Source: Candidatus Hermodarchaeota archaeon (GTDB taxonomy: Archaea > Asgardarchaeota > Heimdallarchaeia > Hodarchaeales > Hodarchaeaceae). From it: a DNA stretch of 32,000 nucleotides. The stretch is from the NCBI GenBank assembly GCA_048886185.1, contig JBHLKY010000018.1, positions 19,151 to 51,150 of the forward strand, in the 5' to 3' direction. The notes beneath the pieces were generated by a model that saw only the letters and a list, made by a program, of their open reading frames with translations, ran no database searches and was not told the origin of the DNA. Position numbers and translations under genes: made by a program. Shown in pieces: positions 4,721 to 10,764 of the stretch (within the stretch, counting starts at the first letter, position 1; each line of letters opens with the position of its first letter).

Positions 4721-5566
4721 ATGAGTATAGAATTACCTGAAGCACTAATCCTCACCAAACAGATGACCAAAGAATTAGTAGGAAAACAAATACATTCATG
4801 GTATTTACAGGATTTTGAGAGATTAATCAAAGTTGGTTTCCTGAATAAGAATATTAAAGATTTTGATCAGTTGGTTAAAGGGAAAGTACAATCAGTTGTT
4901 TCTAGAGGTAATAGTATTGTTGTAAAACTTGATAATAAAATGAATCTTCTTCTTGCACCAGAGTATGGTGGAAAGATCCTTTATCATGAAAAAAATGTCA
5001 CAATTCCAAAGAAAGTCCATTTACTAGTACAGTTTTCTGACAACACCTCATTAACAGTGAGACTAACGAGTATGGGATGCATATATGCTGCTAATGATAA
5101 AGAATTGAAACAATTGTACATTTATGAACGAGATTTTTCTGGTACCTTGTCACCTATAGACGTTGAATTTACATTCAAGCGTTTTTCCCAATTAATAGCT
5201 GGAATGAGAAGAAATATTAAGTCAGTACTTGTTGGAAAGGAAGCAGTAATAGTAGGTGTCTCAAACAGTGCTTTTCAAGATATTATCTACAGAGCGAAAA
5301 TCCATCCTAAAGTGAAGGTATCTGAACTTACTACTGATGAGAGAAAAACAGTTTTCTACGCTATCAAGACACTTATTCAGGAGAGAATTAAGTTTGGAGG
5401 TAAAGACCAGTTTCTTGACTTATATGGCAATTCAGGGAAGTACATACCTACAATGGGACCAAATATGAAGAATAAAGCCTGCCATCATTGTGGAACAACC
5501 ATTGAGAAGTTAAGTATGGGTGGAGGACAAGTTTATTACTGCCCAAGGTGTCAAGTACCTAAATAG
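4721..5566 (+). CDS. Fpg/Nei-family DNA glycosylase-like protein with non-canonical active site
   Basis: N-terminal IELPEA, H2TH motif GVSNSAFQDIIYRAKIHP, C-terminal zinc finger CHHC...YYCPRCQ. Confidence 0.85.
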   Translation: MSIELPEALILTKQMTKELVGKQIHSWYLQDFERLIKVGFLNKNIKDFDQLVKGKVQSVVSRGNSIVVKLDNKMNLLLAPEYGGKILYHEKNVTIPKKVHLLVQFSDNTSLTVRLTSMGCIYAANDKELKQLYIYERDFSGTLSPIDVEFTFKRFSQLIAGMRRNIKSVLVGKEAVIVGVSNSAFQDIIYRAKIHPKVKVSELTTDERKTVFYAIKTLIQERIKFGGKDQFLDLYGNSGKYIPTMGPNMKNKACHHCGTTIEKLSMGGGQVYYCPRCQVPK

Positions 5567-8986: not shown

Positions 8987-10144
8987 ATGGGTTCATTAGA
9001 AAGAAAAATTGAAATCTTAGGTGATGCGAGTAAATTCGATGTTTGTGCTTCGATGGCTTCACCAAGAAATGTGTCTGGAGTAAATCGAATCGGTAATCCG
9101 GATAAAGTGGGGATATGTCATGCTTTCGCCCCTGATGGCCGATGTATAAGTCTTTTCAAAGTACTCATGACTAATCACTGCATTTATGACTGTAAGTATT
9201 GTGTAAACAGCTGTGGTAAAGCCAAAGAAAAGGTTATGTTTGAACCTGTGGAGTTAGCGCGAGCTTTTACAGGCCTCTATATTCGAAACTATGTTGAAGG
9301 GTTATTCTTGTCATCGGGAGTCTGGAGAAGTGCAACTGAGACAACAGAGAAAATGATTGAGGCACTTATGCTCATTCGTCATAAATATCATTTTCAGGGG
9401 TACATTCACCTAAAGATCCTGCCAGGAACTGATAAAGAATATATCTATCAGCTGATGGAGCTAGCTGATCGTGTTAGTCTTAATGTAGAGTTACCTAGTG
9501 CTTCCCGTCTTAATGAAGTTTCTAGTATGAAAAATTATGATACAGATATCATTAGGTGCCAAGAAATTATCTATCAATACATTAAAAAAGGATTAGTACC
9601 AGCAGGTCAGACAACACAATTCATTATTGGAACAACTGAAGAATCTGATCAAGAGATCGTTGAAAGACTGTATTGGGAGTACAAACGATTAGATTTAAAA
9701 AGAGCATACTTTTCTGCATTCACACCAATCAAAGGTACACCATTAGAGGATAAAAAAGTATCAGAGACATATCACCAGAGAAGGGAAAATTTCCTCTACA
9801 GGGTAGATTGGTTATTTCGGCGATATAAATATGAAATTGAGAGTATTTATTCGATTATGACTGATCAAGGAATGATTCCTCTGAATATCGACCCAAAGAT
9901 CTTACTTGCCCTGAATGATGATATTTTTCCATTAGATGTAAATAAAGCTTCTTATTCGGAGTTATTAAGGGTTCCTGGGATTGGAGAAGTTTCCGCTAGA
10001 CGTATCATTAATTTAAGAAAAGTGAACAACAAAATTCACAGTTATAAAGATTTACAGAGATTAGGTGTTGTGGTTAGGCGCGCTAAATCATTTCTTACTA
10101 TTAATGGCAAAAGGCAGACAAGAATAAGGGAATTTTTTCAATAA
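8987..10144 (+). CDS. Putative DNA modification/repair radical SAM protein (TIGR03916-type)
   Basis: GICHAFAPDGRCISLFKVLMTNHCIYDCKYC (CxxxCxxC), GLFLSSG, GYIHLK, GQTTQFIIG, helix-hairpin-helix LLRVPGIGEVSARRII; C-terminal QTRIREFF. Confidence 0.9.
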   Translation: MGSLERKIEILGDASKFDVCASMASPRNVSGVNRIGNPDKVGICHAFAPDGRCISLFKVLMTNHCIYDCKYCVNSCGKAKEKVMFEPVELARAFTGLYIRNYVEGLFLSSGVWRSATETTEKMIEALMLIRHKYHFQGYIHLKILPGTDKEYIYQLMELADRVSLNVELPSASRLNEVSSMKNYDTDIIRCQEIIYQYIKKGLVPAGQTTQFIIGTTEESDQEIVERLYWEYKRLDLKRAYFSAFTPIKGTPLEDKKVSETYHQRRENFLYRVDWLFRRYKYEIESIYSIMTDQGMIPLNIDPKILLALNDDIFPLDVNKASYSELLRVPGIGEVSARRIINLRKVNNKIHSYKDLQRLGVVVRRAKSFLTINGKRQTRIREFFQ

Positions 10145-10152
10145 GGATCCTG

Positions 10153-10764
10153 GTGCTTATAGTGTTTAGAAAAATCACAAGAAAACAAGTTTTAGATTCA
10201 TTATCAAGGCATAAAAATGCTACAACAGAACTTTTAGAGAATGTAAAACTTATTCCAAAAGAAATACTTGAAAATATTGGAACAGATGTAGCTAAAAGGG
10301 CTGTAGCAATGAGTCAAGAAGTAGATAGGGATCTTCATTCTCACAAAGCCTTCTTACGTCTCTCTGCATCCCCATATGGCATATTATATGCAAAATCAGA
10401 TAGAATGAAACATTATAATGAAGAGCATCTAATTAAGTTCTTTCATACTAGGTTTCCTACCTTTATAATTCTATTTGAATCGAAAAGAGGGACTTTTTCA
10501 ATCAACCAGGATTCAATAATAGAAAATTCAACTAAATCATTAGATGAGGCTCTTCAGGAGTATGAAAAAAAACTCCCGATCAATCCTTTATTTATAAACT
10601 CTGATGAAAGGGAATACCTAGAATTATGGGAAAGCTTTGCCCATTCCCAAATAATTAGAGGTAGAAGAACATCAAAACAATTGATCAGTTTATCGAAAAG
10701 ATGGGGAGGAACAGTAGCAAAAGATAAAACTGAATCCAAGAAATTAGATGAATTTTTTGAATAG
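10153..10764 (+). CDS. DUF4130 / TIGR03915-like partner of the radical SAM protein
   Basis: 8 nt downstream, GTG start. EVDRDLHSHKAFLRL...GILYA...FFHTRFP...YLELWESF follows the family pattern (HRxKAFxRF...RF...LWxxY). Confidence 0.7.
   Translation: MLIVFRKITRKQVLDSLSRHKNATTELLENVKLIPKEILENIGTDVAKRAVAMSQEVDRDLHSHKAFLRLSASPYGILYAKSDRMKHYNEEHLIKFFHTRFPTFIILFESKRGTFSINQDSIIENSTKSLDEALQEYEKKLPINPLFINSDEREYLELWESFAHSQIIRGRRTSKQLISLSKRWGGTVAKDKTESKKLDEFFE

Follow-up and report, generated by a model that had tools for sequence, protein, structure and literature searches.

Predicted sliding-clamp docking peptides on an archaeal radical SAM protein and its DUF4130 partner

Two adjacent genes of a Candidatus Hermodarchaeota archaeon, one encoding a radical SAM (S-adenosylmethionine) protein of the TIGR03916 family and the other a partner with a DUF4130 domain, both end in sequences that resemble the PIP (PCNA-interacting protein) box, and the question that they raise is whether this uncharacterised pair works on the sliding clamp. 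The genes lie in a stretch of 32,000 nucleotides (referred to here as the window) that corresponds to C18:19151-51150 of a 4.84 Mb genome in 75 contigs; its proteins have their closest relatives under the names Hodarchaeota and Heimdallarchaeota, which marks the host as an Asgard archaeon. At the end of the radical SAM protein, QTRIREFF is an exact match to the consensus Qxx[LIM]xx[FY][FYW]; the corresponding sequence of the partner, SKKLDEFF, meets the consensus at positions 4, 7 and 8 and has serine in the place of the glutamine. A first-pass annotation of the window had pointed to these two motifs, the positions of which are exact in the translations of the open reading frames (ORFs). Across orthologues of the radical SAM protein, the motif is conserved in hosts that possess PCNA and replaced in hosts that possess DnaN but not PCNA; that is, it follows the clamp of the host. 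We consider it probable that the two proteins form a heterodimer of which each subunit docks on PCNA, with the bacterial version docking on the beta clamp via its catalytic subunit.

The tails across archaea and bacteria

The sequences closest to the radical SAM protein were collected as 120 clusters at 90% identity, archaeal in every case where a source is named. Nearly all of their tails are alike, in lineages that include Hod-, Heimdall-, Thor-, Odin-, Loki- and Helarchaeota, Woese-, Micr- and Altiarchaeota, Thermoplasmata and Methanofastidiosa. When 113 archaeal-type clusters are aligned in a fixed register after F-x-x-N-G, the last folded segment, glutamine occupies tail position 3 in 68%, leucine, isoleucine, methionine or valine occupies position 6 in 97% and an aromatic residue (phenylalanine, tryptophan or tyrosine) occupies position 9 in 96%, with position 10 being hydrophobic (mostly L, F, I or V). 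The positions in between vary, and most of the proteins stop within 0-2 residues of the end of the motif. Among 29 further Asgard loci, 24 have Q..[LIMV]..[FYW] within their last 25 residues. In the protein encoded in the window, only two residues separate the last folded segment (...FLTING-KR-) from the PIP box. The AF2 (AlphaFold2) model of this protein has a mean pLDDT (predicted local distance difference test) of 90 and a fold that ends near residue 376; residues 380-385 fall below a pLDDT of 50 and form a one-turn helix at 380-384, as expected of a PIP peptide.

The tail of the partner is conserved in its own form. All 36 of the closest DUF4130 orthologues possess it, with L195 and D196 nearly invariant and x-[FY]-[FLI] following. 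In all ten of the named archaeal loci that have a partner, belonging to Woesearchaeota, Methanosarcinales, Methanomassiliicoccales, Methanofastidiosum and several Promethearchaeota, the protein ends in [ST/N]-K-[KT]-[LI]-[DNS]-x-[FY]-x. A further 27 Asgard partner loci comprise 21 with the core within the last 16 residues, five in which K-T-K-L-D-x-F-[LI] is followed by an extension of 12-25 residues and one broken ORF; as background, 12% of internal windows in the same proteins match the core. The AF2 model of the partner (pLDDT 78) is disordered, with low pLDDT, over residues 184-190 and closes with a short helix at 195-199. The first-pass annotation had made its proposal depend on conservation of the motifs among archaeal orthologues, and such conservation is found for both proteins in several archaeal phyla.

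The bacterial orthologues (65 complete, named loci) continue past the same folded segment of the radical SAM protein with an extension of 20-60 residues. Within this extension, 56 of the 65 proteins carry Q[LM].[LMF]F, typically as QLSLF, QLELF or QLSFF, and most of the remaining tails have near variants (QLSFL, QISMF, QLSVF, QFELF). The pattern is absent from all 372 internal 60-residue windows of the bacterial proteins and from all 133 archaeal tails. Peptides of the QLSLF/QLELF type represent the beta-clamp-binding consensus, and the first-pass annotation, which had mentioned that some bacterial members end in QLxLF motifs, was correct as regards the radical SAM subunit. No clamp-like peptide is seen in 63 bacterial DUF4130 partners, which end in a conserved ...MPKRYW..E or in a fused UDG (uracil-DNA glycosylase) domain. 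The clamp motif is thus found on one subunit in bacteria and on both in archaea, and the earlier proposal that both subunits load on the clamp would apply to the archaeal pair, where each has a conserved motif, but not to the bacterial one.

Two other elements were seen near the ends of bacterial proteins. In several Clostridia (L015, L019, L021, L030, L039, L052, L060 and L078), a second conserved element, ..E(D/E)V.KCLTGQ[IVM]*, occupies the extreme C-terminus of the radical SAM protein, 10-25 residues past QLSLF. Alphaproteobacterial DUF4130-UDG fusions (L020, L043, L050, L067, L068, L071 and L081) have in common a Q-x-[RE]-L-F-x-x-D-L sequence some 20 residues before the end, which is faintly like a beta-clamp motif but may simply belong to the final helix of the UDG domain.

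To relate the tails to descent, a maximum-likelihood tree was constructed from 84 radical SAM cores from which the tails had been removed (nine alphaproteobacterial rows, in which the trimming rule missed the helix-hairpin-helix (HhH) anchor, were left out). The tree comprises two clades, one archaeal and one bacterial, each with 100/100 support and with a long branch between them. Included with the 26 archaea of the archaeal clade is one bacterium, a Margulisiibacteriota metagenome-assembled genome that is basal on a long branch. The tail of its radical SAM protein (L007:3001-4191 (+)), ...NG-KA-QGNIKNIV-MA-KQLELF..., consists of a decayed PIP-like stretch that is free of aromatic residues, followed by a beta-clamp motif, and DnaN is present in the same genome, in which PCNA was not found. 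This protein looks like a natural case of clamp-motif replacement. In the genome to which the window belongs, the census of clamp genes gave one PCNA and no DnaN.

The bacterial clade contains a single row labelled as archaeal, from a Methanomethylophilaceae genome (L042:800-2060 (+)), which is nested in Adlercreutzia. We rejected it as an archaeal exception: the gene is on a 2-kb contig, and its bin, in which DnaN is present and PCNA not detectable, has probably been mislabelled or contaminated. As the tree has no root, the direction and timing of transfer between the domains are not readable from it. This unrooted tree of two deep clades speaks neither for nor against the suggestion of the first-pass annotation that the clamp motif was swapped on transfer to archaea; a recent transfer into archaea with a motif swap was rejected, given the depth of the clades and the long branch between them.

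PIP-like tails and PCNA in the host

How specific such C-termini are within the host was gauged from a census of its 3539 ORFs of at least 120 amino acids. Five ORFs carry the strict pattern Q..[LIM]..F[FYW] within their final 12 residues, compared with 0-1 matches in internal control windows; their products are a family-B DNA polymerase (PolB), FEN1, a Rad51-like protein, a DUF72 protein and the TIGR03916 radical SAM protein itself. Looser canonical patterns bring in a Y-family polymerase and two DNA methyltransferases. Without the glutamine, [LIM]..FF is found in the last eight residues of 26 ORFs compared with 7-11 internally. Identified proteins among the 26 include another two PolB paralogues, an HhH-GPD glycosylase and two DNA methyltransferases of the N6/N4 type. 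The looser Gln-less pattern brings in a third N6/N4 methyltransferase (...NLDSFL), and loose Gln-less patterns give 16 tail matches compared with 9-12 internal ones. About 0.2 adjacent pairs of L..FF-tailed genes are expected by chance in one such genome, so that two neighbouring tailed genes could on their own be a coincidence; it is because the motifs are conserved across orthologues that they can be regarded as real.

The closest counterpart of the partner tail within the host belongs to the clamp loader. The large subunit of RFC (replication factor C), encoded 2 kb from the PCNA gene, has the C-terminus EKKLTDYF*, which is likewise Gln-less and near-identical to SKKLDEFF (its best NCBIfam match is to NF003229, at 273 bits and just under the cut-off of 280).

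The Gln-less partner tail, the more open of the two cases, was chosen for co-folding with the host PCNA, a check that the first-pass annotation had proposed. Residues 161-200 of the partner (with an alignment of 37 rows) were co-folded with PCNA residues 14-270 (80 rows), giving an ipSAE (interaction prediction score from aligned errors) of 0.70, 0.70 and 0.71 in three runs, compared with 0.00 for the best of three controls. Of 80 solved complexes, 58 come up to the mark used, as do 2 of 110 mismatched pairs; these counts are rough for the present purpose since own alignments were used here. The runs share at least 82% of their contacts, and the pLDDT of the partner is at least 46. In the model, residues 190-200 of the tail contact PCNA at 56-63, 141-146 (the interdomain connecting loop), 219-223, 245-246 and 262-267, the last of these being the conserved C-terminal A-P strand, and L195 and F198 are placed in the canonical pocket. 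The DUF4130 peptide is thus predicted to dock where a PIP box would.

Several further observations were made on the host's clamp and on other proteins of the census. PCNA itself has an extension of about 30 residues past its conserved C-terminal strand, made up almost entirely of aspartate and glutamate plus two tryptophans. Five DNA methyltransferases (four N6_N4_Mtase and one C-5 cytosine methyltransferase; Table 1) have PIP-like tails and are, from their sequences, candidate PCNA-coupled methylases. The DUF72 protein (L085:1-828 (-)), a member of an uncharacterised family, has a strict PIP box, ...RQMSLKDFF*, at its C-terminus. A Rad51/RadA-like paralogue (L086:1-807 (-)) with the tail QQIPLTEFW* adjoins a PolB paralogue (L091:1-2286 (-)) with the tail KKDMTLESFF*, and this pair (C5:146746-150155) is the second in which adjacent genes encode proteins that both bear PIP-like tails. 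In this genome a PIP motif at the C-terminus specifically marks DNA enzymes and is of use in finding further clients such as the methyltransferases, the DUF72 protein and the Rad51-like protein.

The gene pair and its relatives

The features of the pair are listed in Table 1, together with those located elsewhere in the genome. Membership of the radical SAM protein in TIGR03916 is supported by a score of 382.2 bits (cut-off 343.5) over residues 4-378 of the protein with the NCBIfam profile, and the Pfam domains Radical_SAM and HHH_3 are both matched. Upstream of the [4Fe-4S] ligands, C20 and C44 show no variation in the orthologue alignment and C53 hardly any; it is a reasonable inference from this conservation that the three are candidate ligands of an auxiliary cluster. 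A sequence search of the PDB with this protein returned a ComEA-related HhH fragment (chain 2duy) as the sole match.

Table 1 Features of the radical SAM-DUF4130 gene pair (window positions) and of related genes elsewhere in the host genome (locus positions)
Feature	Position	Strand	Details
Radical SAM protein (TIGR03916)	8987..10144	+	ORF, 385 aa, C-terminus INGKRQTRIREFFQ*
Radical SAM [4Fe-4S] ligands C65-x3-C69-x2-C72	9179..9202	+	Invariant columns in orthologue alignment
Helix-hairpin-helix DNA-binding domain HHH_3, residues 316-358	9932..10060	+	PF12836, 39 bits
Canonical PIP box QTRIREFF of radical SAM protein	10115..10138	+	One residue from C-terminus (QTRIREFFQ*)
DUF4130/TIGR03915-like partner subunit	10162..10764	+	ORF, 200 aa; PF13566 match; C-terminus TESKKLDEFFE*
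Gln-less PIP-like box SKKLDEFF of partner	10735..10758	+	One residue from C-terminus
Host PCNA, single copy	L001:1453-2352	+	Census of clamp genes
DNA methyltransferases with PIP-like tails	L093:1-1083 (-), L094:1-1044 (-), L096:1-801 (-), L087:1-765 (+), L090:1-960 (+)		Tails ...TNLDQFFNTS, ...TKTLQNFF, ...INLDSFL, ...KQSTLESYLE, ...AQQILMMFLEN

The partner passes the cut-off of the Pfam family DUF4130 (PF13566) with 46.1 bits, the cut-off being 27, but fails that of the NCBIfam equivalog TIGR03915 (40.5 bits, cut-off 112.25), of which it covers profile positions 69-226 of 243. We therefore regard it as a short archaeal form that lacks a UDG domain, and file it under DUF4130 rather than under the equivalog. 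Two start codons are candidates, both GTG, at 10162 (200 amino acids, the form found in databases) or 10153 (203 amino acids), and the gene accordingly begins 8-17 nucleotides 3' of the radical SAM gene. The order radical SAM then DUF4130 is common to archaea and bacteria (73 named loci). The two genes most likely make up a single operon. The partner displays a weak likeness to the RecJ/DHH fold (E 0.03), in agreement with a recent preprint in which the bacterial TIGR03916/DUF4130 pair is also predicted to be a heterodimer (bioRxiv 10.64898/2026.08.19.745780).

No functional link was seen to the neighbouring genes, which encode a GNAT acetyltransferase, a protein without a family match and, on the opposite strand, a PAS histidine kinase/response regulator. 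Further upstream, at 4721-5566 (+) in the window, is a gene for an Fpg/Nei-type DNA glycosylase (Fapy_DNA_glyco, H2TH, zinc finger). It lies 3.4 kb from the operon on the same strand with four unrelated genes between, and nothing ties the two together.

Archaeal PCNA clients with a PIP box include FEN1, the RFC large subunit, PolB, RNase HII, NucS/EndoMS and the family-4 UDG. The pair resembles these in bearing Qxx[LIM]xx[FYW][FYWL] or its Gln-less variant on a flexible C-terminus, as do PolB, FEN1 and the RFC large subunit of the host, and in the predicted docking of the partner at the interdomain connecting loop and hydrophobic pocket; it differs in consisting of a radical SAM enzyme plus an accessory subunit, with a motif on each of the two. 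To our knowledge, and in the literature searched, there is no radical SAM protein among described PCNA clients.

The beta-clamp clients that use a QL[SD]LF motif include Pol IV, UmuC, Pol II, MutS and Hda. Bacterial TIGR03916 proteins are like them in that a linker of 20-40 residues leads to QLSLF, QLELF or QLSFF close to or at the C-terminus; the comparison concerns the bacterial orthologues and not the protein of the window, and additional residues often come after the motif. As with Pol IV and UmuC, the bacterial TIGR03916 genes are regulated by DNA damage (PMC12392091), and have been placed in neighbourhoods of the SOS type (PMC3765255).

We know of no characterised DNA-repair radical SAM enzyme other than the spore photoproduct lyase SplB, and of no clamp motif in SplB. 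Enzymes linked to DUF4130 have been grouped with 'SplB-like radical SAM photolyases' (PMC3765255). The present protein has no significant sequence match to the solved lyase, however, which is also absent among the best 50 fold matches, and the pair differs from SplB in possessing an HhH domain, an obligatory DUF4130 partner, conserved N-terminal cysteines and a clamp motif. The nearest solved folds found with Foldseek for the radical SAM model are HydE, BioB, ThiH, LipA and viperin.

The bacterial TIGR03916/TIGR03915(-UDG) module is built from these two families, with their genes arranged in identical order, and its DUF4130 protein is often fused or linked to a UDG-like domain. Compared with it, the archaeal partner is short (about 200 amino acids), lacks the first 65 or so profile positions and the UDG fusion and has gained the PIP-like tail, whilst the archaeal radical SAM protein lacks the long bacterial linker.

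What the tails may do

The heterodimer that we favour would be an enzyme acting on DNA. Its catalytic subunit would combine the [4Fe-4S]/SAM core with a probable auxiliary cluster and the HhH domain, and its second subunit, the RecJ/DHH-like DUF4130 protein, would be non-catalytic. The flexible tails QTRIREFF and SKKLDEFF would insert into the hydrophobic pocket below the interdomain connecting loop of homotrimeric PCNA, possibly occupying two of the three pockets, and the heterodimer would ride on the clamp, or be recruited to it, and meet its DNA substrate there. The two-residue spacer between fold and PIP box suggests that the HhH domain would lie close to the clamp face. Bacterial orthologues would do the same job on the beta clamp by means of QLSLF on the radical SAM subunit only. 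For the archaeal pair we infer physical binding to PCNA, bivalency, replication coupling and chemistry alike. A repair reaction on a damaged base is our best guess, because the bacterial genes are DNA-damage-regulated, occur in SOS-type neighbourhoods and frequently have a UDG-like domain fused or linked to them. Docking of the radical SAM tail taken alone would deserve more confidence than the statement as a whole, and docking of the partner tail somewhat less.

A number of points weigh against this reading. The partner motif is without the canonical glutamine, which is not conserved among the partner orthologues either, and about a third of the radical SAM orthologues have another residue at motif position 1. 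Methanobacteria have shortened tails (QSRLEF*, QTTL*), and one Asgard family, next to whose gene no DUF4130 gene was detected, has valine at the aromatic position. In bacteria, where the partners are free of the motif, a second tether is evidently not essential to the system. Not all of the C-terminal matches in the census belong to DNA enzymes: false positives are a glycosyl hydrolase and an esterase, to which the looser pattern adds a class-I (Trp/Tyr) tRNA synthetase. PCNA-PIP structures are abundant in the PDB, and a pass in the co-fold consequently shows likeness to them rather than binding by this copy; the pLDDT of the partner in the co-fold is below 50, and the result speaks for the partner tail only. 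Finally, the folds found by Foldseek are those of generic full-barrel radical SAM enzymes and give no clue to the substrate.

The tails of the Asgard family with valine read QLKLDEVY.. and QLRLGDVR.. (L124:1473-2646 (+) and L126:1464-2646 (-)).

Of the alternatives, the one that survives best is that the radical SAM subunit alone docks, with the K-x-L-D-x-F-F tail of the partner serving for fold-back, for gating of the active site or for binding another replisome or repair factor. The missing glutamine, the absence of any clamp motif from bacterial partners and the lower specificity of loose Gln-less patterns in the host (the 16 tail matches compared with 9-12) are all in its favour. The host's own clamp loader, however, ends in the same Gln-less form, and the host has two PolB paralogues, a glycosylase and DNA methyltransferases with similar ends; furthermore, the partner tail is confined to hosts that bear PCNA, and the co-fold puts L195 and F198 in the canonical pocket with a score far above that of the controls. 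We therefore regard docking by the radical SAM subunit alone as unlikely.

A second alternative is that the tails are conserved for a reason other than the clamp: they might make contacts inside the heterodimer or an oligomer, or bind a different hub protein, and the bacterial QLSLF would likewise not be a clamp motif. PIP-like peptides are generally known to be promiscuous, and the literature searched gave no experiment connecting a clamp with any family member. Against this, the peptide consensus switches exactly with the type of clamp in the host, the Margulisiibacteriota case included, the tails are disordered segments beyond the folded core, and the same motifs end genuine clamp clients of the host. 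This explanation appears to us quite improbable. Chance resemblance of short hydrophobic or aromatic C-termini, to which the expectation of 0.2 adjacent pairs per genome lends a little weight, can be dismissed as hardly credible in the face of 96-97% conservation at two key positions, in a fixed register and with variable flanks, across more than 100 divergent orthologues, and of the like conservation in the partner. It is the combination of a motif that follows clamp type, its conservation in fixed register and its specificity for DNA enzymes that makes both chance and a non-clamp function unlikely, and docking of the archaeal heterodimer on PCNA through both of its subunits remains the reading that we prefer.

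Whilst PIP-box clients are well known, the literature searched does not describe a radical SAM enzyme and a DUF partner in this role, and in it we found neither a paper tying the TIGR03916/DUF4130 family to a clamp nor biochemical data for any of its members. What is added here is the archaea-wide Gln-less tail of the partner and its absence in bacteria, the host census with the RFC large subunit as calibrator, the comparison of the Margulisiibacteriota case with the clamp genes of that genome and the controlled co-fold of the partner tail.

The family is a widespread one: strong TIGR03916/DUF4130 matches occur in about a quarter of the Asgard genomes sampled, and the pair is present in many Bacillota, Bacteroidota, Alphaproteobacteria and Actinomycetota. 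Caulobacter vibrioides and Bacteroides thetaiotaomicron, two of the control genomes, also gave profile matches. At its boldest, the pair could, in archaea and bacteria alike, be the first case of a radical SAM enzyme operating on a sliding clamp, with a bivalent archaeal form that would position its active site and HhH domain above the DNA as it leaves the ring and remove or rewrite a replication-blocking base lesion by radical chemistry; the division into two clades, each with the peptide that fits its clamp, would then point to an ancient clamp-coupled repair system rather than to recent transfer; this we put forward tentatively, as a possibility about which we have more doubt than confidence. 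More generally, a clamp peptide that switches with the host is the first concrete pointer to where this uncharacterised pair acts, the predicted site being clamp-loaded DNA, and searches for its substrate should include the clamp together with primed or nicked DNA. If the prediction is true, radical SAM chemistry joins the transactions on DNA that are coupled to the sliding clamp.

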